Notes: generated by a model not told the origin, from the sequence alone. A stretch of DNA of 64,000 bases from a virus (IMGVR_UViG_3300046717_000225:1-64000); one strand, 5' to 3'. Counted from the first letter of the stretch, positions 27,207 through 38,683 are shown. Made by a program: numbers and translations.

Positions 27207-27940
27207 CCATCAAGGCCATCGAGACCCGGTACGCGGGGTGCAGGTTCCGGTCCCGGCTGGAGGCGCGCTGGGCCGTGTTCTTCGACTCTCTCGGGGTCGC
27301 CTGGGAGTACGAGAAGGAGGGGTTCGAGACTCCGGATGGCGGGTACCTTCCGGACTTCTGGCTGCCCAACGGGGGAGGCTGGTGGGAGATCAAGGGGGAA
27401 GCTCCTTCCGAGCACGACCTCAACCGGTGCCGCTGGGTCCCTGGCCTGTGTGTCCTTGTAGGGGACATCCCTCGGGACATTGAAAGCCCGGACACGATCC
27501 AATGGCTCATGTACGGCTCCTGCTCAGACTGTGAACACGTGGGGCCTTGCTTCTGCGGGCATGGGAGCGTCTTCTGCCGGTGTGCTCCGGGACAGGAGGC
27601 GAAACGCTGGTTCACTGCGAGCTGGGACGAGTACTGGCCGTTCGGGGACAACCCTCGGCGGGTCTCCGACCAAGAGGCCCTGAACAGGGCCAGGTCTGCC
27701 CGGTTCGAGCATGGGGAGTCCGGAGCCCCTAAGGCTCAGCCCCCCAAGCGGGCTGCACCCCTGCACACGCCAACCGATAACCCGTTCAAGCCCCGGGGTG
27801 TGCTAGGTGAGCCCGAGGGGACGGAGCCCTGCTGCTCACGCTACCCATTTGGCTGTGACCACATCTGGTGCCCCCGCTGCAATGACTGGGGCAAGGACAC
27901 CGGGTCCGGCTGCTCCAAGCATGCCAACCCGTCCTGGTAG
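27203..27940 (+). CDS. PD-(D/E)xK nuclease-like protein, paralog 2
   Basis: FRSRLEARWA...WEYEKE...YLPDF...WWEIK. Confidence 0.7.
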   Translation: MTIKAIETRYAGCRFRSRLEARWAVFFDSLGVAWEYEKEGFETPDGGYLPDFWLPNGGGWWEIKGEAPSEHDLNRCRWVPGLCVLVGDIPRDIESPDTIQWLMYGSCSDCEHVGPCFCGHGSVFCRCAPGQEAKRWFTASWDEYWPFGDNPRRVSDQEALNRARSARFEHGESGAPKAQPPKRAAPLHTPTDNPFKPRGVLGEPEGTEPCCSRYPFGCDHIWCPRCNDWGKDTGSGCSKHANPSW

Positions 27941-27956
27941 ACCAAGGAGCCTGCGC

Positions 27957-30900
27957 ATGACCATGGAAATGGCTCCGGCCGACCTGCTGCCCGGACACGC
28001 TCGTGAGCTGGAGGAGAGCTGTATCGCGCCGCAGGTACGGGACCGGCGCCGGTACGAGACCCTGTACGACACGGAGGAGAGCCGGGCCCGGCTCAAGGAG
28101 CTGCGTATCCCCCGCTGGGCCTGGCGGGACCCGATGGCGTTCCCGGGCCTTCTCATGCCCATGTACCGGGTGACGGGAGAGGAAATCGGGCACCAGTTCA
28201 AGCCCGCTCTGCCGCAGGAGGCCCCCGGGGGAAAGCTCCAGAAGTATGCGAGCCAGACCGGTGTGCCCAACCGGCTGGACGTGCCGCCGGCGGTCGCGGA
28301 CGACGTACGTGACCCGAGCAGTCCCCTCTGGATCACCGAGGGTATCAAGAAAGGGGACTGCCTGGCCTCCCTCGGCAAGGCCGTGATCACCCTGACCGGG
28401 GTGTTCAACTGGCGGTCCAAGATGGGCACGCTCGGAGACTGGGAGGACATCCCGCTCCGGGGCCGCACGACGGTCATCTGCTTCGACTCAGACGCCCGGG
28501 ACAACCGGAACGTCCTGGGGGCGATGCAGAGGCTCGGCCGCTGGCTGGAGAGCAAGGGTGCGGCCGTCCGGTACCTGATCGTGCCGGGCGAGGTGGAGGG
28601 TACCGAAGTCAAGGGCGTGGACGATTTCTTCCACGCGGGCGGGACGCTCGAAGCCCTCGGCCAGGCCAGCATGGACCAGCTGCCCAACGAGGCCCGGGAC
28701 GCGACCTTCACGGACAGGGTGCTGGCCGACACGGTGTGCTCGGAGGAGCTGGACGGCCGGTTCAGGTGGGCGTCCGGCCGGGGCTGGATGCAGTGGACGG
28801 GCAAGGTCTGGCGCGAGGCCACTGAGGTGACCGTCACGGAGACGATCAGCCGGTGGGCCCTGGAGCAGTACCACCAGGCCGTGGACCAGCAGCACAACGG
28901 CACGGGGAGGGACCTGGGCTCCGTTGTGGAGGGCTGGCGCGGGATGCTGAGCGGGAGCCGGGTGGGGGCGGTTCTCCGGCTGGCCAAGGGCGTCCTGGAG
29001 TGTGACGCGGAGGCGTTCGACCGGGACCCGGACCTGATGAACTGCCCCAACGGAATCGTGGACCTGCGGACGGGGACACTCACGCCGAACGACCCCGACC
29101 TGCTGATGACGAAGATCACGGGGGCGGAGTTCGTCAAGAACGCTGAGCACCCCGACTGGGCCAAGGCCCTGGAGGCCCTGCCGGACGACGTGGTGGACTG
29201 GTTCCAGCTACGGGTCGGACAGGCATTGACAGGGCACATGACGCCGGACGACACGGTCGTCATCTGTCAGGGCGGGGGAGAGAACGGCAAGAGCACAGTG
29301 TACGACGGGCTGGCGCTGGCAGCCGGGAAGTACCACGTCCAGGTGAGCGACCGGGCGATGATGGGCGGCGCGACGGACAACCACCCGACGGAGATCATGG
29401 ATCTGATGGGGGCCCGGTACGCCGTTCTCGAAGAGACCCCCGAGGCCCGCCGGCTGGACACCAACCGGCTCAAGAAACTGACCGGGACCCGGGAGATCAC
29501 CGGACGGCGCATCCGGCAGGACCCGGTCACCTTCGAGGCGACGCACACCATCTTCATCAACTCCAACCACAAGCCCGTCGTGGACGAGACGGATCACGGC
29601 ACCTGGAGGCGGCTGGCTCTGCTGGCGTGGCCCTACACGTTCAGGAAGCCCGGACAGGCGCTCCACGGGGCCAACGACCGTCCCGGGGACCCGACCCTGC
29701 GCGACCGCATCAAGCTCGATCCCCAGGTCCAGGAGGCTGCGCTGGCGTGGATGGCGGCCGGGGCACGGCGCTGGTACGAGCTGGAGAAGATCATGCCCGA
29801 GCAGCCTGTCCGTGTGCAGGCCGACACCCTCGCGTGGCGTAAGACGGCCGACCTGATCCTCGCCTTCGCCACGGAGGTCCTGGAGTTCGACCGGGACAGC
29901 TTCATTGCCTCCACGGAGCTACGGAGCGTGTTCAACGACTGGCTCCGGGAGAAAGGGGCGAAGGAGTGGGGGGAGAAGACTTTCAGTGCCCGTTTCGGAG
30001 GGCACGACGCGGTCACGCAGCGAGGCGTGGAGTACAAGATCGTACGTAACGGTCCGGGGCTCAGCACAAAAGCCCTTAATCCCCCGTCCGGGAAGACTCT
30101 ACGCGTATGGGCTGGAATACGCTTTTCGGGCCTACCCCCGTGCGACCGGGGTAATTCGGGTGAATCGGGCCCACCCCAGGTCAGCGGACCCACCCAAGAT
30201 CACGTTACGCCTGTTACGCCAGATCCTGTAACCCCCCTAGAAGTCACCCACGCGAGTGTTATACCTGCGACGCGTAACAGGCGTAACACGATCTTGGATG
30301 AGTACGGTCCGGACCCGTTCGAGCCCGAGCCGGCCGAGCCCGCACCCCCCGTCCTCAACGGCCCGGTCGCGTTCGACCTGGAGACCCCGAGTGCGAAGGA
30401 ACTGTTCACGTTCCGTAGCGGAGAGCAAACGCCCTACGCCCGGCTGAACGGGGTCCTGGACGGGGACGGCAAGGAGATCATCACGACCGACCCGGCCGAG
30501 CTGGTCCGCCTCCTGACGGCCGCTCCCGCCCTGTATGCCCACAACGGCTACCGGTTCGACCTGATGGCGCTCGCGTGGCACCACGGGGCCGACTACGACG
30601 CCCTCGCCGCTAAGACGTGGGACACCTACGTGGACGAGACCGTGCTGGACCCTCCGGGCGCCAAGGGCCAGAAACCCTGGGCGACGGAGGGCTACTACGG
30701 GCTGGACAAGGCCCTGGAGCGCCGGGGCGAGCCCGGCAAGACCGATCACCTGCCCGCTCTCGCCCGTGAGTTCGCGGCCGATGGCCTGACGGGCAAGGCG
30801 GCGGAGGAGGACGGATACGGAAAAATCCCGCCGGACAACGCCCGATACAACGCCTACCTGTCCGGCGACCTGAAGGCTCAGGACCGGCTGTACCGGACCC

Positions 30901-32249
30901 AGCAGGCCGACCCGGACCGCATGGAGTACCGCCGGCGTGAGCAGCGCGTCGCCCACATCCAGAACCGGATGACGCTGTCTGGCTGGAAGGTCGACGTCCC
31001 CCTGCTCGCCCGGTGCGTCCGGGAGGAGGCCGACAAGGTCCGGGAGAGCCTGGGCTGGCTGAACGAGAACTGCGGCATCCCGCTGACGAAGTCGGTCGGC
31101 ACCGGCCGGGGCAAGAACCGGACCTTCCGGGACGAGCCCGTGCTGAGCCCGCTCACGACGACCGTCGGCCGGGAGGCGGTCAAGGCCGCGTTCCGGGACC
31201 GGGGGCTGCCGTACTTCCTGGAGACCGAGAGCGGCGCGCTGGCTCTGAACAAGGACGCCCTGGGAGAGGGCAGCTACATGGTCGGCAAGGGTGCGGCCGG
31301 GAAGCTGCTGCCCGGCCTGCTGAACCCGGCGCGCATGGCCCGGCTGCCCGGGGCCGACTGGGAGGCGATAGCGGAGATGGCCGGACACATCCGGCTCGTC
31401 ACCACCGCCGTGCAGAAGTACCAGGAGATCCAGGGCTTCCTCCTCGGCGACCGGGTGCACGCTCACGTTGGCGAGACGCAGGGCAGCCGTCGCTGGGCCA
31501 TGGTGAAGCCGAGCATCACCAACCTGGGGAAAAGAGGCGGCAAGGTCGTGCAGCGGGCGCCATTCATCGCCGACGACGGCTGCGTGCTGATCGCCTTCGA
31601 CTTCGACCAGGTGGACATGCGCGCGTTCGCGGGGCACTGCGGCGACCCGGAGTACGTCGGCATGTTCCTGCGGGAGGAGGACCCGCACTCCATGGTCGCG
31701 GACATGGTGTTCGGCAGGCATGATGGGGACTGGCGCGAGCACGCCAAGGGCGCCGGCCACGGCTGGAACTACGGCCTCAGCGTCGGCGGCATGGTCAACC
31801 AGGGCATCGAGCGTCCCCTGGCCGAGCGGTTCGACGCCGGTATGAACGAGAACTACCCGGTGCTCTGCTCCTGGCGGACCGAGGTCCGTGCACGGGCGGC
31901 GGACGGCCAGCTCCTGGAGAACGGGTTCGGCGCCCTGCTGCGGTGCGACCCGGCCCGTGCGTACACCCAGGCTCCGGCCCAGATCGGCCAGGGCACGGCC
32001 CGGGACATCATGTGTGAGGGCCTGCTGCGCCTGCCGCAGGAGTACGTGCCGTGGCTGCGGGGCGTGGTGCACGACGAGGCCGTGTTCAATGTGCCCGAGG
32101 GCCGGGTGGAGGAGTGCGTGGAACGGGTGACGGCCGCCTTCACGATGGACCTGGCCGAGATCACGAACGGACGGTTGCACTCGGTGCCGATTGTGGCCGG
32201 GGCGTCCAGGCCGGGGCACGACTGGGCATCTTGCTATTCCAAGGACTGA
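27957..32249 (+). CDS. primase (TOPRIM/DUF3854-like)-SF3 helicase-family A DNA polymerase fusion, 1430 aa
   Basis: WITEG, FDSD, KGVDDF; D5-like NCPNGIVDL; Walker A GGGENGKST, INSNH; exo DLET, HNGYRFDL, YLSGD; pol DFDQVDMR, REHAKGAGHGWNYG, VHDE. Confidence 0.92.
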   Translation: MTMEMAPADLLPGHARELEESCIAPQVRDRRRYETLYDTEESRARLKELRIPRWAWRDPMAFPGLLMPMYRVTGEEIGHQFKPALPQEAPGGKLQKYASQTGVPNRLDVPPAVADDVRDPSSPLWITEGIKKGDCLASLGKAVITLTGVFNWRSKMGTLGDWEDIPLRGRTTVICFDSDARDNRNVLGAMQRLGRWLESKGAAVRYLIVPGEVEGTEVKGVDDFFHAGGTLEALGQASMDQLPNEARDATFTDRVLADTVCSEELDGRFRWASGRGWMQWTGKVWREATEVTVTETISRWALEQYHQAVDQQHNGTGRDLGSVVEGWRGMLSGSRVGAVLRLAKGVLECDAEAFDRDPDLMNCPNGIVDLRTGTLTPNDPDLLMTKITGAEFVKNAEHPDWAKALEALPDDVVDWFQLRVGQALTGHMTPDDTVVICQGGGENGKSTVYDGLALAAGKYHVQVSDRAMMGGATDNHPTEIMDLMGARYAVLEETPEARRLDTNRLKKLTGTREITGRRIRQDPVTFEATHTIFINSNHKPVVDETDHGTWRRLALLAWPYTFRKPGQALHGANDRPGDPTLRDRIKLDPQVQEAALAWMAAGARRWYELEKIMPEQPVRVQADTLAWRKTADLILAFATEVLEFDRDSFIASTELRSVFNDWLREKGAKEWGEKTFSARFGGHDAVTQRGVEYKIVRNGPGLSTKALNPPSGKTLRVWAGIRFSGLPPCDRGNSGESGPPQVSGPTQDHVTPVTPDPVTPLEVTHASVIPATRNRRNTILDEYGPDPFEPEPAEPAPPVLNGPVAFDLETPSAKELFTFRSGEQTPYARLNGVLDGDGKEIITTDPAELVRLLTAAPALYAHNGYRFDLMALAWHHGADYDALAAKTWDTYVDETVLDPPGAKGQKPWATEGYYGLDKALERRGEPGKTDHLPALAREFAADGLTGKAAEEDGYGKIPPDNARYNAYLSGDLKAQDRLYRTQQADPDRMEYRRREQRVAHIQNRMTLSGWKVDVPLLARCVREEADKVRESLGWLNENCGIPLTKSVGTGRGKNRTFRDEPVLSPLTTTVGREAVKAAFRDRGLPYFLETESGALALNKDALGEGSYMVGKGAAGKLLPGLLNPARMARLPGADWEAIAEMAGHIRLVTTAVQKYQEIQGFLLGDRVHAHVGETQGSRRWAMVKPSITNLGKRGGKVVQRAPFIADDGCVLIAFDFDQVDMRAFAGHCGDPEYVGMFLREEDPHSMVADMVFGRHDGDWREHAKGAGHGWNYGLSVGGMVNQGIERPLAERFDAGMNENYPVLCSWRTEVRARAADGQLLENGFGALLRCDPARAYTQAPAQIGQGTARDIMCEGLLRLPQEYVPWLRGVVHDEAVFNVPEGRVEECVERVTAAFTMDLAEITNGRLHSVPIVAGASRPGHDWASCYSKD
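30204..30287. repeat. 16-bp perfect inverted repeat made of TGTTACGC iterons, putative origin
   Basis: GTTACGCCTGTTACGC (30204-30219) and GCGTAACAGGCGTAAC (30272-30287) in an AT-richer intragenic patch. Confidence 0.65.
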
Positions 32250-33258: not shown

Positions 33259-33431
33259 CCTGGACGGCCCGCAAGAGGCACGGCCGGTGGCACTGGGTAT
33301 GCACCTGGTGCTCGCCGGCCGTTTCCGGTTCCACGGCCGCCTTCGGCCGCCTGCTCGTCAGCCTGCGGCATCATGAACGAGTGCGCCGGTGCCATCACAG
33401 GCATGTGGCCCGATCAAGGAGAGTCAAGTGA
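33255..33431 (+). CDS. 58-aa basic His/Cys peptide (absent from ORF track)
   Basis: MTWTARKRHGRWHWVCTWC...; GTGA overlaps at both ends. Confidence 0.5.
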   Translation: MTWTARKRHGRWHWVCTWCSPAVSGSTAAFGRLLVSLRHHERVRRCHHRHVARSRRVK

Positions 33432-34174
33432 CCACGGAGTACGTCGAGACCAGGATGATCCGCCTGGACGAGCTGACCCCCTTCCCGGGCAACGCCCGGC
33501 GGGGCGACCCGCACAAGCTGGCCGAGTCGCTCGAAGCCAACGGCCAGTACCGCAGCCTGATCGTGAGGCAGGCCCCCGACGGCCTGATCGTCCTCGCCGG
33601 TAACAACACCCTGCTCGCCCTGGAGGCGAAGGGCGAGACCGAGGCCCGCTGCGAGATCGTCCAGTGCGACGAGGCGACCGCCCTGCGGGTCAACCTGGTC
33701 GACAACAAGACCAACGACTCCGCCACTTACGACGACGCTGCGCGCGCGGCCCTGCTTGTGCTCCTGGACGGGGAACTGGCCGGCACCGGCTACGACGACG
33801 ACGAGGCCGACACGATCATCGCCCGGTTCGAGGAGGAGGAGATCACCCCCCTGTCCGAGCCGGCGGTCCTGGACTACAACGACGACCAGGCCGAGCGCGA
33901 GGCGCGCATCCTGAGCCACGGCGGGGAGAACAGCCGGACCATGGAGAGCCGGGGGATCCGGGACGTCATTCTCGCGATGCCCGCTGCCGAGGCGGACGAA
34001 CTCGGTCGGCTGATCATGGCCCTTCGGGCCACCTGGGGCGCGCTGCCGCAGGGAGACATCCTGCTGCGGGCGGCACGGGTGGCGTATGCGGCTCTGGAGC
34101 AGGGTGACGACCTGACCCGTGCGGACCTGGCGGCGCATGCCGACGAGCCGTACGCGCCCGAGGAGGGATCATGA
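33428..34174 (+). CDS. ParB-like N-terminal domain protein
   Basis: LTPFPGNARRGD...LAESLEANGQYRSLIV...VLAGNNTL...NLVDNK. Confidence 0.85.
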   Translation: MTTEYVETRMIRLDELTPFPGNARRGDPHKLAESLEANGQYRSLIVRQAPDGLIVLAGNNTLLALEAKGETEARCEIVQCDEATALRVNLVDNKTNDSATYDDAARAALLVLLDGELAGTGYDDDEADTIIARFEEEEITPLSEPAVLDYNDDQAEREARILSHGGENSRTMESRGIRDVILAMPAAEADELGRLIMALRATWGALPQGDILLRAARVAYAALEQGDDLTRADLAAHADEPYAPEEGS

Positions 34175-34269
34175 CCGTAATGGAGGCGCTCTTCGCGGGC
34201 ATGGGGATGGGCTGGGCAATCGCGATGGTGGGGCTCTTCGTCGGGACCTGGATCGGGCGGGACGGGTGA
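34171..34269 (+). CDS. 32-aa TM peptide
   Basis: coupled overlaps. Confidence 0.45.
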   Translation: MTVMEALFAGMGMGWAIAMVGLFVGTWIGRDG

Positions 34270-35354
34270 CCGAGCTGAAGGCGGGCATGGACTTCCGCCT
34301 CCCGGAGCACAGGAGGGAGGTTTTCCTGCGTTTCCTCCAGTGGTCGCACCAGCACAAGTCCTTCCCAGGAGGAGTGCATTACGTGCTCCCGTACCTGGCC
34401 AAGGCGCTCGAACTGGACCTTGAACAGAGGTACTGGCTGGCCTGGCTGAACGCGAACACACAGAACCCGGTGACGAGCCTGCTTCTGTTCAGGGCCGCGC
34501 CCCGGATGCAGGACCACGAGAAGGCGATCGACCTCTGGCGGACCCACTACCGGGCGCTGGACTGGGACACCGACCGCCGGTACCACAAGGCCCGGTTCGA
34601 GGACGCGGTACGCGGCTACGTCCGGGCGGTCGACTGCTCCTGCTCCGGCCCACAACACAGGTACTTCCGGGTCGGGTACGAGTGGCAGGCCTGGTGGGAC
34701 GTCGCGTTCGCCCTCCCGACCATGGGCAGGCTCAGCACCTGGAGCTATCTGGAGTACCTGCGCATTCTGCTCGGGCCGACCGTCGTTCCCGATGCGGACA
34801 CGCTGATGCTGGAGGACATCCAGGGCAGCCGGTCGCACCGCAACGGGCTCGCGCTCGTGCTCGGCCGGGACGAGTGGATCGTGGACAAGCAGCTCGGCTC
34901 CGGCCGCACGGACGCGGTCTGCACCCCGGACGTCCTGGCCGAACTCGGGTACGAGTCGAACGCCCTGTTCCTCCAGGCACGGGAGCGCATAGGCCCGGCG
35001 GCCGACCGTCTGAGCCTTGAGAGTGCGCTGTGCACGTACAAGAGCTGGCACAAGCCGAACCGCCGGTACCCGGGCGTGTACAACGACATGCTGTACAACC
35101 GGCTGGTCTCGGCCGAGAACCGGTGGGGCCAGCGGTTCGGGGTCATCTGGGACGCGCGTGCGGAGGCCCTGCCGGACAGGCTGCTCCTGGAGCGCTCGCC
35201 GTACGACCCGGGCCTGAGCCCGGTGAAGCAGAACTGGTACCTGGCTCATGGCCAGTGTCTGAATATGTCGGAGGAGTGGCCGTGCTTCCAGAACGACTTC
35301 GAGAAGACTGTCCAGAAGCACGGGTTCGGGGTCCGGGCACGGCCCTGGATCTGA
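34266..35354 (+). CDS. alpha-glutamyl/putrescinyl-thymine pyrophosphorylase (aGPT-Pplase)-like amino acid:DNA transferase
   Basis: YWLAWL, DWDTDRRYHK, MGRLSTWSYLEYL (HhH-glycosylase-like), SHRNGL, ESALCTYK. Confidence 0.82.
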   Translation: MTELKAGMDFRLPEHRREVFLRFLQWSHQHKSFPGGVHYVLPYLAKALELDLEQRYWLAWLNANTQNPVTSLLLFRAAPRMQDHEKAIDLWRTHYRALDWDTDRRYHKARFEDAVRGYVRAVDCSCSGPQHRYFRVGYEWQAWWDVAFALPTMGRLSTWSYLEYLRILLGPTVVPDADTLMLEDIQGSRSHRNGLALVLGRDEWIVDKQLGSGRTDAVCTPDVLAELGYESNALFLQARERIGPAADRLSLESALCTYKSWHKPNRRYPGVYNDMLYNRLVSAENRWGQRFGVIWDARAEALPDRLLLERSPYDPGLSPVKQNWYLAHGQCLNMSEEWPCFQNDFEKTVQKHGFGVRARPWI

Positions 35355-36211
35355 GGAACTGGCTGAGCCCGGTCGAAGATCGTGACGGCCGTCTGTACAA
35401 GCGCGAAGATCGCTGCGCCCTGCCCTCCGGCGTCAACGGGTCCAAGCTGCGCGCCTGCGATCACCTGATCCGTCAGGGAGCTGCGGCCGGCGCGCGCCGG
35501 GTCATCTCGGCCGCTTCCGTGCTCAGCCCCCAGAGCGCCATGGCAGCCATCGTCGCCGCCCGGTACGGGCTGGGCTGCACGGTCGTGCTCGGGGGCACAT
35601 CGCCCCGGACTGCCTTCACGCACCGATCGCCCGCCCTCGCCCGGGAGTACGGCGCGCAGTTCGAGTTCGTGGGCGTCGGGTACAACCCGGTGCTCCAGGC
35701 ACATGCTGAGAAGCTGGATCGCTCGGACCCGCTGGCCTACTGGCTCCAGTACGGCATCACGACCGCACCGGACGCGAGCGCCCGGGAGGTGCGCGCCTTC
35801 CACCGGATCACAGCCGACCAGTGCGCCAACCTGCCGGAGGGCATCAAGACCCTCGTCGTCCCGTTCGGCTCGGGCAACACCGGGGCGGGCGTACTCATGG
35901 GCCTGAACCAGCACGCACCACGTTCCCTGGAGAAGGTCGTCCTCGTCGCCATCGGACCGGACCGGCGCTCCTGGCTGCGGCACCGGTTCGAGTACATGGG
36001 CGTGAGCCTGCCCCGCTACCGTGTCATCGACCTGCACGGCTCGGGCTACGCCGCCTACGGCGACCGCATGCCCGGTACGGCGGACGGGATCGTGCTCCAC
36101 CCGACGTACGAGGGCAAGGTGGTCCGCTACCTGGACGCGAAAGCCCCGGACTGGTGGGTGCGCCGGGACGGCACGACCTGCCTCTGGATCGTAGGAGGAC
36201 CGCTCAAGTGA
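35282..36211 (+). CDS. fold-type II PLP enzyme (ACC deaminase/D-cysteine desulfhydrase-like)
   Basis: YKRED...GVNGSKLR (PLP lysine), VPFGSGNTGAG, LHPTYEGK; start inferred from GGAGGAG RBS. Confidence 0.82.
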   Translation: MLPERLREDCPEARVRGPGTALDLRNWLSPVEDRDGRLYKREDRCALPSGVNGSKLRACDHLIRQGAAAGARRVISAASVLSPQSAMAAIVAARYGLGCTVVLGGTSPRTAFTHRSPALAREYGAQFEFVGVGYNPVLQAHAEKLDRSDPLAYWLQYGITTAPDASAREVRAFHRITADQCANLPEGIKTLVVPFGSGNTGAGVLMGLNQHAPRSLEKVVLVAIGPDRRSWLRHRFEYMGVSLPRYRVIDLHGSGYAAYGDRMPGTADGIVLHPTYEGKVVRYLDAKAPDWWVRRDGTTCLWIVGGPLK

Positions 36212-36228
36212 CCAAGGAAGAGGAACTC

Positions 36229-36762
36229 ATGACTGAGCGTTACACACCCCAGCCCGGGGACATCGGCCTGACCACGATCTCCGGCGCCGGGGGCAAGCTC
36301 ATCCGCCTCGGCCAGTGGCTCAACGGGGACGGCTGGAAGGCCCAGCAGCATGCCTTCGTCGTCACGGAGTACCGGCAGGGCCTGGACCTGAAGAATCTCC
36401 CGAACCCGCCCTGGATCGTGGAGGCGATGCCCGGCGGGGCGCAGCACGTCAAGAACTGGCACACGGACTGCGTCTATCTGCGTTGCCCGGACGAGTACCG
36501 GGACGCGGTCGCAGCTGCGGCGCGCGGGTACGTGGGTGTGCCGTACTCGTTCCTGGACTACGGCGCGCTGGCCCTGCACCGGTTCCACATCCCCACCCCG
36601 CACCTGAAGCGGTTCATCGCCGACGGGGGCCATCAGATCTGCTCCCAGCTGGCCGATCAGTCGGCAGCCGATGGCGGCTGGAACCTGTTCCAGAACACCT
36701 GGCCCGGGGACATCACTCCTGGGGACCTGGCCCGGCTGTACCGGAAGCAGGTGTACGCATGA
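36229..36762 (+). CDS. permuted papain-like (NlpC/P60, YaeF/YiiX-type) enzyme
   Basis: PQPGDI, HAFVV, VEAMPGG, GVPYS, ICSQLA (His precedes Cys). Confidence 0.7.
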   Translation: MTERYTPQPGDIGLTTISGAGGKLIRLGQWLNGDGWKAQQHAFVVTEYRQGLDLKNLPNPPWIVEAMPGGAQHVKNWHTDCVYLRCPDEYRDAVAAAARGYVGVPYSFLDYGALALHRFHIPTPHLKRFIADGGHQICSQLADQSAADGGWNLFQNTWPGDITPGDLARLYRKQVYA

Positions 36763-37349
36763 TCAACCACATGCTCTACATCGCGGGCCCGCCTGGCGTC
36801 GGCAAGTCGACCCTCGCCCGGGAGCTGACGGCCGGCTGGGACCGGGAGCTGATGGCGCACCACCCCGTAGTGCCCCATGTCCGTCTCCGGCACCCGGTCT
36901 CCGGCCTGAAGATCGGCCTGGAACTCGGCGTGCCCCGGCCTGCCTTCCCGGGCACGGACGCGCTCAGCATGAGCATCGGTCCGGCCGCGCTCCAGTTCCT
37001 TCTCGACCGGACGAGTGCTTTCCCCTTCGCCCTCGGAGAGGGCTCACGGCTCGCCACGCGCCCGTTCCTGGGCGGGCTGGTGGCAGCGGGCGTCCGGCTC
37101 ACGTTCGTGTCTCTGAGCGCGCCACAGGAAGTCCTGGACTACCGCTGGAAGGTCCGGGGCGGGAAGCAGAACCAGAGCTGGCGCAAGGGCGCGGCCACCC
37201 GGGCGGAGCGGATGTTCGAGTGGGCGCTGCTCACGGACGGGGTCCGGACCGTCCGGTCGGAGTCCGTGGACCGTACGGACATGACCGAGATCGCCGACGA
37301 GGTCCGGGACGCGTTCCCGCTCATCGACCTGAGGGAGAGTGCAGCGTGA
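36759..37349 (+). CDS. P-loop nucleotide/hydroxymethylpyrimidine-DNA kinase
   Basis: IAGPPGVGKST, GTDALSMSI, GEGSRL. Confidence 0.82.
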   Translation: MINHMLYIAGPPGVGKSTLARELTAGWDRELMAHHPVVPHVRLRHPVSGLKIGLELGVPRPAFPGTDALSMSIGPAALQFLLDRTSAFPFALGEGSRLATRPFLGGLVAAGVRLTFVSLSAPQEVLDYRWKVRGGKQNQSWRKGAATRAERMFEWALLTDGVRTVRSESVDRTDMTEIADEVRDAFPLIDLRESAA

Positions 37350-37369
37350 TGCGGCTCAAGGTACGCTGA
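37346..37369 (+). pseudogene. orphaned original N-terminus of the TET/JBP gene (M-M-R-L-K-V-R-stop)
   Basis: coupled to the kinase stop, with RBS; parallels VSLRIR, which precedes SRISKEE at 37790-37807. Confidence 0.55.
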
Positions 37370-37374
37370 CCCTT

Positions 37375-37794
37375 ATGACAAAGGTGATCTATGGTCTCGT
37401 TGACCATGAGGGCGTTACCCGGTACGTAGGGCAGTCGGGGGAGGCGTTCTCTCGGCTGGAGTACCACATATCCAGATCCTTCCGGGAACGGAAGGAGGAC
37501 CGGACCCCAGCACAGCAGTGGGTCTGGGACCAGATCGTGGTCCATCGGCACGTCCCGGGGATAGATCTCCTGGAGTTTCCGGAGGATGCAGAGGCCAATG
37601 CTGCGGAGCGCCGGTGGATAGAGCATTACGGTTATGAGCAGCTCACCAACACCTCGTACGCGGAACGCTTGGCCAAGGCACGTCCCAAGCTGAGTGCGGC
37701 CACACTGGGCCGGAAGGACAGTGCAGCAACCAAGAAGCGCAAGAGCGAGAGTGCAAAACGAGCCTGGGAGAAGCGCCGTGCAGCCGATCGTTAG
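37375..37794 (+). mobile_element. GIY-YIG homing endonuclease gene
   Basis: VIYGL...RYVGQS...RLEYH...EANAAERRWI, NUMOD3-like tail; lower GC3. Confidence 0.85.
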
Positions 37795-38683
37795 TCTGAG
37801 AATCAGGTCGCGCATCTCCAAGGAGGAGCTGGACCTCAAGGTCGGCAAGGTGATCGGCGACGACGCGTACAACGTCCTGCTCACCGGGCCGACCCGGGTT
37901 TATATGCCGAACGGGAAGATCCTGTGCGTGTACCTGCCCGGGGCGCTCAAGGACCACGTGACCGAGGAGCAGTACGCGGTGCTGCACTCGCTGCGCTCGC
38001 ACAAGACCGACTCCCGGGGGCAGGCCTCAGGCAGTCAAAGTGTGGTGAGAACGGGCGAGCAGCGGACGCGGAGATTCCTGCCCGTCAGCTCCAGCATCCT
38101 TGGCTCCTTCGACCCCAATCTCACGTTCAAGTTCTGCCGCACCACGGCCTGGACCGGGCGTCACGTTCCGGAGTGGGACACGCTGCGCCCCCTGCTCCAG
38201 CAGGTCGCCGGTCACATGGAGCAGCAGGTGCCCGACCGGTACGCGGCGCAGATGGCCGAGATCGGCCGGACGCATCCGGACTGGGTCGTGCCCGGTACTC
38301 CGTTCACTACCCTCACGGTCAACAACACGTACCCGACCGGCGTGCACACCGACAAGGGCGACCTGGACGCCGGCTTCAGCACGATCGCCGTGCTGCGCCG
38401 GGGGAGCTACACCGGGGGCCGGTTCGTGTTCCCGGAGTTCCGGGTCGCGGCCGACCTCCAGGACGGGGACCTCATCCTCATGGACGCGCACCAGTGGCAT
38501 GGGAACACGGCCCTGGTCTGCGCCTGCGGCGAGAAGAGGGCCAAGATGTGTGAGGCCTGCGGGGCCGAGAGGATCAGCCTGGTCTCGTACATGCGCACGG
38601 CCATGACCAGCTGCGGAAGCGAAGAGGAGGAGAACCAACGCGCCGTGGAATACCGTGAAAGGACCAAGGGAGTGATCAGGTAG
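37778..38683 (+). CDS. TET/JBP-family 2OG-Fe(II) dioxygenase
   Basis: PFTTLTVNNT, GVHTDKGD (HxD), WHGNT, RISLVSY. Confidence 0.85.
   Translation: MQPIVSLRIRSRISKEELDLKVGKVIGDDAYNVLLTGPTRVYMPNGKILCVYLPGALKDHVTEEQYAVLHSLRSHKTDSRGQASGSQSVVRTGEQRTRRFLPVSSSILGSFDPNLTFKFCRTTAWTGRHVPEWDTLRPLLQQVAGHMEQQVPDRYAAQMAEIGRTHPDWVVPGTPFTTLTVNNTYPTGVHTDKGDLDAGFSTIAVLRRGSYTGGRFVFPEFRVAADLQDGDLILMDAHQWHGNTALVCACGEKRAKMCEACGAERISLVSYMRTAMTSCGSEEEENQRAVEYRERTKGVIR

Follow-up and report, generated by a model that had tools for sequence, protein, structure and literature searches.

The 5-NeOmdU pathway of Salmonella phage ViI (Kuttervirus) consists of the kinases gp67/gp243, the serine:DNA transferase gp247 and the PLP decarboxylase gp226 (Lee et al. 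2018, 2021; PMC5889632, PMC8989533), the last of which is a characterized O-serinyl-thymidine decarboxylase that was modelled on an ACC-deaminase homologue, 1j0a (PMC8989533). The 5-NedU pathway of Pseudomonas phage M6 comprises the glycine transferase gp51, the PLP decarboxylase gp52, the radical-SAM isomerase gp53 and the kinase gp54. Mutation of the active-site Cys or of a nearby Glu kills both amino acid:DNA transferases (AADTs), M6 gp51 and ViI gp247, and the Schiff-base lysines of the two decarboxylases are K92 in gp226 and K36 in gp52 (PMC8989533). Donor choice in the AADT family can be switched by two pocket residues, and the donor carboxylate is coordinated by a Tyr of the glycine transferase (PMC13458397). 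Furthermore, a ParB-dependent subclass of T-dioxygenases linked to kinases and AADTs has been described as 5mYOX clade C1, for example, 5mYOX176 with ParB176 (O'Toole et al., PNAS 2026, PMC13229309), and there are metavirome contigs in which TET_JBP replaces the dUMP hydroxymethylase beside 5-HMUDK, aGPT-Pplase2 and PLP genes (Lee et al. 2021, 'Global occurrence', PMC8989533).

We analysed a stretch of 64,000 nucleotides (hereafter, the window; IMGVR_UViG_3300046717_000225:1-64000) from an uncultured Streptomyces-type phage represented by an IMG/VR record, with a complete genome of 79 kb. Positions 33428-38683 are occupied by a run of overlapping genes for a ParB-like protein, an AADT, a fold-II PLP enzyme, a permuted NlpC/P60 enzyme, a P-loop kinase, a GIY-YIG insert and a TET/JBP dioxygenase (Table 1). 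The stop codon of the ParB-like gene overlaps the start of a mini-ORF (ATGA), the stop of which is coupled to the AADT gene (GTGA); the AADT and PLP genes overlap by 73 nt, and the junctions from the PLP gene to the papain-like gene and from the latter to the kinase gene are GTGA and ATGA, respectively, in agreement with the translational coupling claimed in a preliminary description of this DNA. In the alignment with the related locus L007, the mini-ORF is missing and ParB is directly coupled to AADT. The mini-ORF may serve solely as a translation relay. The six family assignments made in that description also stand, given the profile searches, structure matches and invariant residues, and the HMM searches it had proposed for aGPT-Pplase, P-loop kinase, TET_JBP and PALP yielded matches to PF18724, PF18751, PF12851 and PF00291, all above the curated cut-offs.

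Table 1. Genes and other features of the predicted modification cluster (positions in the window).
Feature	Coordinates	Strand	Supporting match or observation
ParB-like protein, 248 aa, probable T-dioxygenase activator	33428..34174	+	phrog_723 at 3.6e-36
32-codon hydrophobic mini-ORF	34171..34269	+	bridges ParB and AADT (ATGA start, GTGA end); seen in translation
AADT, clade-2 aGPT-Pplase (aGPT-Pplase2), 362 aa	34266..35354	+	PF18724 at 7.5e-12; phrog_3271 at 1.6e-78
Fold-type II PLP enzyme, ViI gp226 decarboxylase homologue, 309 aa	35282..36211 (alternative start 35276)	+	PF00291, phrog_3650
Permuted NlpC/P60 (YiiX/YaeF-like) cysteine enzyme, 184 aa	36208..36762 (alternative start 36229)	+	fold match 2if6, 3kw0
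P-loop kinase, predicted 5-hmdU DNA kinase, 196 aa	36759..37349	+	PF18751 at 6.2e-25, Walker A
Relic of original TET 5' end, 7 codons then stop	37346..37369	+	GTGA-coupled to kinase stop
GIY-YIG-like homing endonuclease ORF	37375..37794	+	PF01541 weak (E 0.04); GIY...YVG spacing
TET/JBP-type Fe(II)/2OG dioxygenase (5mYOX), predicted thymine dioxygenase, 301 aa	37778..38683	+	PF12851 at 9e-18

We consider this region to be a post-replicative thymidine hypermodification cluster that combines a ParB-dependent, TET/JBP-fed front end with a ViI-type back end, in which an amino acid is added and then decarboxylated, and we put the probability of this reading at roughly 0.75. Under this scheme, the TET/JBP dioxygenase, aided by the ParB-like protein, would convert T in the phage DNA to 5-hydroxymethyluracil (5hmU), which would be converted to 5-phosphomethyl-U by the P-loop kinase. 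[quoted passage not shown] Our best guess for the final base is 5-NeOmdU, 5-(2-aminoethoxy)methyl-U, or a closely analogous base. The data show to which families the proteins belong, which catalytic residues they retain, how the genes are linked and that other routes are missing, whereas the enzymatic activities, the donor and the final base are inferred; the on-DNA order of T hydroxylation, phosphorylation and amino acid transfer, already put forward in the preliminary description, is well supported.

The AADT, which is present in a single copy in the genome, scored 45.9 bits against PF18724 in the protein profile search (cut-off 26.2) and 43.2 bits in a six-frame genome search. Its nearest characterized relative is the serine transferase ViI gp247 (26% identity, E 2e-26), and the comparison with the glycine transferase M6 gp51 gave no BLAST match; among actinophage proteins, Glutamicibacter phage Montesquieu gp42 and Mycobacterium phage Heath gp3 are 45-50% identical to it. 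E252 and C256 are invariant in the alignment of the window, two actinophages, Montesquieu, ViI gp247 and M6 gp51, and Y268 is a conserved Tyr that matches the donor-carboxylate ligand of the glycine enzyme. The donor amino acid is uncertain because the position of YuA/M6 K248 is occupied by Thr in the window's AADT (Trp in ViI); O-linked serine is our best guess. No radical-SAM isomerase gene was found in the complete genome, so that, by the logic of PMC8989533, there would be no means of unmasking an N-alpha-linked glycine for the PLP enzyme to act on.

The source of 5hmU can be examined across 46 related viral AADT-PLP loci, which contain either TET only (31) or a dUMP-hydroxymethylase-like gene only (15), with none containing both or neither. 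Because dUMP-hydroxymethylase-like genes feed the AADT-PLP pair in these 15 sister loci, 5hmU is fixed as the substrate of the pair. A search of the complete genome for the C5-methyltransferase profile PF00145, in which the positive controls matched, was negative; given this absence and the use of the same AADT-PLP pair by the hydroxymethylase-fed sister clusters, thymine is the likely substrate of the dioxygenase. Genes for ThyA, ThyX and dCMP deaminase are missing from the complete genome, which extends beyond the window the earlier remark that no dCMP deaminase or thymidylate-synthase-like gene is present. The kinase predicted to act on 5hmU scored 88.3 bits against PF18751 (P-loop Nucleotide Kinase3; cut-off 27), contains the motif GPPGVGKS and shares 37-39% identity with its homologues, gp4 in both Heath and Vincenzo. 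In the records of the actinophages of this group (Heath, Vincenzo, Montesquieu and Tonitrus), the kinase is annotated as 'terminase small subunit'.

The ParB-like protein, encoded in 25 of the 31 TET-fed sister loci versus 0 of the 15 hydroxymethylase-fed ones, is a probable activator of the T-dioxygenase. It had no match in a Pfam search. Its AF2 model is confident for the N-terminal ParB/Srx domain and for the helical C-terminal domain, and of low confidence for the acidic linker (residues 100-180); judged from the model only, the protein has a nucleotide-binding domain plus a C-terminal one and lacks an HTH/DNA-binding domain. The best PDB matches of the model are the ParB proteins of M. 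xanthus (Myxococcus) and C. crescentus (Caulobacter), at a low TM of ~0.33 that would be consistent with a partial, N-domain match. The ParB and TET co-fold scored 0.53 versus 0.00 for the best control. Among 80 solved complexes, 58 attained this mark, as did 2 of 110 mismatched pairs; scores of 0.60 or less were obtained for just 7 of the 80 solved complexes plus both passing mismatches. At least 63% of the contacts agreed between runs, with a partner pLDDT of at least 75, and the co-fold model may be taken as weak support for a ParB-TET partnership.

The permuted papain-like gene had been listed as part of the operon. The protein has no Pfam match, and PF05708 (peptidase C92) matched 1 of 30 members of its family, at E 0.076. 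Foldseek searches with the AF2 model (pLDDT 86.7) gave YiiX 2if6 and 3kw0 as the top matches (probability 1.0, TM ~0.52), and His48, Glu72 and Cys145 are invariant, with the His preceding the Cys. Conceivably, the pathway outlined above includes, in a sub-lineage, a real additional tailoring step by this enzyme, which would either N-acylate the free amine or act on an amide or peptide carried by the arm, yielding a base other than 5-NeOmdU. Acyltransferases and amidases are both found among permuted NlpC/P60 enzymes (LRAT/HRASLS), and all three catalytic positions (His, polar residue, Cys) are invariant here. Phage PaMx11 provides a precedent, completing its base with an acetyltransferase (PMC8989533), and the gene itself is tightly coupled in the operon, sitting between the PLP and kinase genes with GTGA and ATGA overlaps, a position that it keeps in 12 related loci, with identities as low as 58%. 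However, only 12 of the 80 loci with an NlpC/P60 homologue carry the modification cluster, the other 68 being devoid of modification genes within 6 kb, and the gene adjoins PLP in just 7 of 46 PLP loci. In the sister clusters L092, L096-L101, L104-L105 and L121, PLP leads straight into the kinase and NlpC/P60 is absent, and in two contigs the gene lies >10 kb from the cluster (L018 with L147; L027 with L127). All 108 cultured-phage matches to the gene are from Streptomyces phages, such as Samy, where it resides in ordinary early regions. The tailoring step is therefore unlikely in our view, and the gene, found at 7 of 46 loci, missing from sister clusters and common in Streptomyces phages, is most likely an accessory or passenger, that is, a lineage-specific insert. 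The fold and the coupling described earlier hold; the gene is not a conserved part of the cluster.

The PLP gene, in contrast, is adjoined by AADT in 79 of 80 related loci. Its product scored 46.2 bits against PF00291 (cut-off 35), and its best PDB sequence matches are a D-cysteine desulfhydrase, 4d8t (E 3.8e-10), and an ACC-deaminase homologue, 1j0a (5.2e-07); the label 'fold-II, ACC-deaminase/D-Cys-desulfhydrase-like' given to it previously is correct, although this similarity would demonstrate a shared fold only. The preliminary description went further, setting the enzyme apart from the decarboxylase partners and suggesting that it acts on the adduct by beta-elimination or beta-replacement, for instance by converting a Cys adduct to a thiomethyl base. 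The reaction specificity of fold-II enzymes is plastic, and the closest solved structures by sequence are indeed the two just named. Nevertheless, D-Cys desulfhydrase has, after its lysine helix, a segment Ser-Asn-His that we take to be part of the active site, and the aligned segment of the window's enzyme is S-P-Q instead, a motif that it shares with gp226 and Vincenzo gp2. The enzyme aligns with ViI gp226 over the full length (query 39-305 on gp226 69-395; E 9e-48) at 32% identity, a level that leaves reaction specificity unfixed within fold-II PLP enzymes, and the score of 153 bits against gp226 (BLASTP) compares with 42.5 bits against D-Cys desulfhydrase (phmmer), bearing in mind that the two programs differ. 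K55 occupies an invariant column and aligns with gp226 K92 and M6 gp52 K36, and these two decarboxylases belong to the same family and have the same fold relatives (PMC8989533). Moreover, beta-elimination of an O-serinyl adduct would simply regenerate 5hmU, and no gene of the cluster suggests a thiol donor. With no evidence pointing to elimination, replacement or a Cys adduct, we regard such chemistry as highly improbable; judging by its sequence, the PLP enzyme appears to be a relative of the DNA-bound-serine decarboxylase, with no sign of new chemistry.

The TET/JBP protein scored 64.5 bits against PF12851 (cut-off 34.9); H190, D192, H238/H241 (HxD...H), R265 and the Cys4 knuckle are invariant across 15 relatives, and a short tail of ~22 residues follows the last conserved Cys, the invariant C279. 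Alignment with the relatives L014 and L007, in which TET begins at the position of the relic and is ATGA-coupled to the kinase, places the boundaries of the GIY-YIG ORF within the opening codons of TET. No homologue of this ORF was found in the 80 loci with a papain-like homologue, including the 12 that bear the cluster, and the ORF is a mobile insert. It is missing from the gene list of the preliminary description. Severing of the TET start by this insertion might have rendered the cluster inactive in this genome, as the original start and ~7 codons now form a dead mini-ORF ~430 nt from the gene body. This is very doubtful, however: a GTG at 37778, preceded by a GGGAGAA ribosome-binding site, restores the full-length TET frame, the N-terminus is re-supplied by the insert such that its first residues mimic those of the relatives, and the catalytic residues of TET are all intact, as are the remaining genes. 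With the N-terminus rebuilt in this manner, we assume that TET is active here.

Finally, 5-methylcytosine, proposed as an alternative substrate to T, is scarcely credible as the starting point of a 5hmC-derived base: according to PMC13229309, some phage TET/JBP enzymes oxidize 5mC and the characterized T-dioxygenases do so in vitro too, but the ParB-linked clade C1 enzymes are T-dioxygenases (PMC13229309), and the lack of a C5-methyltransferase and the 15 hydroxymethylase-fed sister loci favour T alone.

Compared with ViI, the post-replicative cluster that we propose has a homologous AADT (26% identity, Glu and Cys kept) and a homologous PLP enzyme (32%, lysine aligned), together with a P-loop DNA kinase step, and neither phage has a radical-SAM isomerase. 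In ViI, however, 5hmdU is made before replication via dUMP hydroxymethylase, whereas the window's TET/JBP and ParB are predicted to act on finished DNA, and the window has one kinase, from another P-loop family with no BLAST match to gp243, where ViI has two. The transferase, PLP enzyme and kinase of M6 come from the same enzyme families, with the lysine column in common, but are far more distant (PLP 24% identical at E 0.002; AADT without a BLAST match), and M6 requires the radical-SAM isomerase that this phage genome lacks.

Several actinophages possess parts of the set: Mycobacterium phages Heath (ParB, TET-like gp2, AADT at 50% identity and a kinase homologue) and Vincenzo (ParB, PLP at 43% identity and a kinase homologue), both Coopervirus, at the left genome end; Glutamicibacter phage Montesquieu (hydroxymethylase, AADT at 45%, PLP at 35% and two kinases); and Rhodococcus phage Tonitrus, with a five-gene set including ParB, TET, aGPT-Pplase2 and kinase (PMC11955845). 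None of these has both the full set of five core genes and the NlpC/P60 insert.

The front end resembles clade C1, to which we liken it by gene content and ParB structure: TET/JBP is clustered with a ParB in which a linker joins a nucleotide-binding domain to a C-terminal one, the best structural matches of the ParB are identical (M. xanthus and C. crescentus ParB), and a P-loop kinase and an AADT are linked with no C5-methyltransferase, although PMC13229309 mentions no PLP enzyme or peptidase in these neighbourhoods. The metavirome contigs of Lee et al. 2021 were described as a class only, with no product or member characterized, but have the same architecture and led to the same interpretation, namely, that TET_JBP supplies 5hmU to the adjoining enzymes. 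The suggestion of a candidate new modified base thus loses its claim to novelty, given that the PLP enzyme is a gp226 homologue and the architecture has been published, and the cluster is of an already described kind (Lee 2021; O'Toole 2026).

The virus record is a complete genome of 79,319 bp with direct terminal repeats and a G+C content of ~68%. The predicted thymidine hypermodification cluster (window 33428-38683) has a putative fused primase-helicase-polymerase gene on one side and the lysis and packaging genes on the other. The former is a single 1480-codon frame just upstream of the cluster (window 27807-32249) with hits to profiles of primase, helicase and family-A DNA polymerase, which suggests a fused replication protein. 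The preliminary description of a translationally coupled run of modification genes was borne out by Pfam, PHROGs and structure prediction/Foldseek assignments, and by the overlapping starts and stops (ATGA, GTGA and one 73-nt overlap) that chain the genes.

Genes of the hypermodification cluster, all on one strand, with the basis of each assignment (window coordinates)
Gene	Position	Strand	Assignment
ParB-like	33428-34174	same	PHROGs + structure prediction/Foldseek
32-codon hydrophobic mini-ORF	34171-34269	same	
Amino acid:DNA transferase (AADT)	34266-35354	same	Pfam above curated cut-off
Fold-II PLP enzyme	35282-36211	same	Pfam PALP above curated cut-off
Permuted NlpC/P60 (papain-like) enzyme	36208-36762	same	structure prediction + Foldseek
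P-loop kinase	36759-37349	same	Pfam Ploopntkinase3 above curated cut-off
GIY-YIG-like ORF	37375-37794	same	
TET/JBP dioxygenase	37778-38683	same	Pfam Tet_JBP above curated cut-off

Pfam found neither a ParB domain nor a peptidase domain in the ParB-like and papain-like proteins, and these two assignments needed PHROGs and structure prediction: the best Foldseek matches of the ParB model are M. xanthus and C. crescentus ParB, and those of the permuted papain-like fold are YiiX 2if6 and 3kw0. No match was obtained for the papain-like protein among PDB sequences (phmmer) or for the cluster region among cultured phages (megablast), a collection that may lack this record or its near relatives. The mini-ORF links the ParB stop (ATGA) to the AADT start (GTGA); it is missing from the related cluster L007, and a longer spacer occupies the same place in another, L014. 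Its role may be to relay translation or to encode a small membrane peptide.

To compare sources of the hydroxymethyl group, we collected 80 viral loci carrying a homologue of the PLP enzyme, using a narrower alignment, as a profile including the ViI and M6 enzymes was too diverse, and looked in them for the other cluster genes. Linkage was counted in the 46 loci whose flanks reached at least 3.5 kb on each side. A TET-type gene alone was present in 31 of these and a thymidylate-synthase-like hydroxymethylase alone in the other 15, with no locus containing both or neither; ParB was found in 25 of the 31 TET loci and in none of the 15 hydroxymethylase loci. The AADT-PLP pair has a single type of feeder gene, either TET or hydroxymethylase-like, and within the compared loci ParB accompanies TET only. 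Because the hydroxymethylase route can give only 5hmU and feeds the same AADT-PLP pair, the predicted function of the TET enzyme here must be the production of 5hmU from thymine. No C5-methyltransferase, ThyA-like, ThyX or dCMP-deaminase gene was found in the complete genome. The cluster resembles both the published case of a TET_JBP protein replacing the hydroxymethylase (PMC8989533) and the ParB-dependent subclass of T-dioxygenases (PMC13229309).

Co-folding hints at an association between TET and ParB, with contact agreement between runs of at least 63% and a partner pLDDT of at least 75. The pair scored 0.53, compared with 0.00 for the best control. Solved complexes reached that mark in 58 of 80 cases and mismatched pairs in 2 of 110, scores of 0.60 or below comprising only 7 of the 80 solved complexes yet both passing mismatches. 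In cultured phages, tblastn recovered relatives of the TET protein only at about 30% identity or less, with no matching cluster beside them. A CxC...CxxC knuckle (TET residues about 248-261), located between the distal iron-binding His and a conserved Arg, is invariant in all 15 aligned dioxygenases and may represent a clade-specific zinc site.

The PLP enzyme was previously assigned to the fold-II ACC-deaminase/D-Cys-desulfhydrase type, and this assignment stands, the nearest solved sequences being 4d8t and 1j0a. The chemistry proposed along with it, unlike that of the decarboxylase routes, does not: the ViI decarboxylase gp226, itself modelled on 1j0a, with Schiff-base lysine K92 (K36 in the M6 decarboxylase gp52) (Lee et al., PMC8989533), aligns with the window's enzyme over the whole length (32% identity, E 9e-48), with a lysine opposite K92. 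In a six-sequence alignment, M6 K36 occupies the same column, and an S-P-Q segment is common to the phage enzymes where D-Cys desulfhydrase has S-N-H. Given the gp226 homology, the aligned lysine and the common segment, the PLP enzyme is a member of the known family of DNA-adduct decarboxylases, and decarboxylation is the parsimonious reading; its ACC-deaminase-like look is the ordinary look of the known DNA decarboxylases. A separate "decarboxylase bracket" argument via M6 gp52 was dropped, gp52 scoring farther from the PLP enzyme than D-Cys desulfhydrase does.

PLP chemistry requires a free alpha-amine. In M6, this is provided by a radical-SAM isomerase, and in ViI by attaching serine through its hydroxyl (PMC8989533). 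The complete genome contains no radical-SAM gene, and a donor linked through its side chain, such as serine, is therefore favoured. Both residues essential in the ViI serine transferase gp247 and the M6 glycine transferase gp51, Glu and Cys, are present in the AADT; gp247 is the AADT's nearest characterised relative (26% identity, E 2e-26), and BLAST gave no match to gp51. The AADT also retains the Tyr with which the glycine enzyme binds the donor carboxylate, diamine transferases having Asp at this position (PMC13458397), and the neighbouring pocket position is Thr in the AADT, Trp in ViI and Lys in M6. An amino acid is the probable donor, serine being one candidate. We consider it rather unlikely that the end product is an undescribed base, produced either with a non-serine donor or by the NlpC/P60 enzyme acylating or trimming the amino-alkyl arm in this sub-lineage. 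A non-serine donor is conceivable because the pocket of this actinophage AADT clade resembles neither that of the serine enzyme nor that of the glycine enzyme; our literature search found no DNA chemistry for actinophages of this type.

Homologues of the papain-like gene number more than 780, and all 108 matches in cultured phages belong to Streptomyces phages and are annotated as peptidase or amidase. Modification genes occur in only 12 of 80 viral loci with a homologue, and in phage Samy the homologue lies in an ordinary early region. The gene adjoins the PLP gene in only 7 of the 46 PLP loci, all in the closest clade, and in sister clusters, one with a PLP enzyme 79% identical, PLP runs directly into the kinase. 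The papain-like gene entered the operon by a lineage-specific insertion; it may have a tailoring role, but nothing in the data calls for one.

Two other phage contigs, IMGVR_UViG_3300044811_000031 (loci L018 and L147) and IMGVR_UViG_3300036805_000098 (L027 and L127), each carry a ParB-AADT-PLP-kinase-TET cluster and, far apart from it, an NlpC/P60 homologue. In Streptomyces phage Samy (L164, 25868-36353), a Mom-like DNA modification gene precedes the homologue by ~1.5 kb and two DNA methyltransferase genes follow it after ~2 kb, a link that may or may not be meaningful. Pfam returned nothing informative for the genes next to the homologues in L005, a Streptomyces genome, and L006, a metagenome contig.

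In relatives, the TET start is ATGA-coupled to the kinase stop. Here, the GIY-YIG-like ORF was inserted after about codon 7 of TET (window 37346-37830); what is left of the old start is a dead ORF of 7 codons, coupled to the kinase stop, and TET now takes its GTG start, its ribosome-binding site and a similar-looking N-terminus from the 3' end of the insert. Across the 80 papain-like loci, 12 of them cluster-bearing, no homologue of the GIY-YIG-like ORF was found.

The 5-hmdU DNA kinase homologues Heath gp4 and Vincenzo gp4 are called "terminase small subunit" in RefSeq, as is the experimentally characterised M6 gp54, and PHROGs uses the same label (phrog_800). Heath gp2, annotated as "queuine tRNA-ribosyltransferase" (phrog_6059), looks like TET/JBP. 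These labels are probably systematic misannotations, that of the kinase being widespread in phage records.

The exact final base can be decided only by chemistry, a routine matter from which no new principle is expected. With this study, the published class of thymidine hypermodification clusters that are fed by a dioxygenase gains a complete phage genome of high GC content, and similar five-gene sets have been noted in actinophages (PMC11955845). The cluster corresponds to a ViI 5-NeOmdU-type pathway whose front end is that of the ParB-dependent 5mYOX (TET/JBP-type dioxygenase) systems, and each half, as well as the two combined, has been described before (PMC8989533, PMC13229309).
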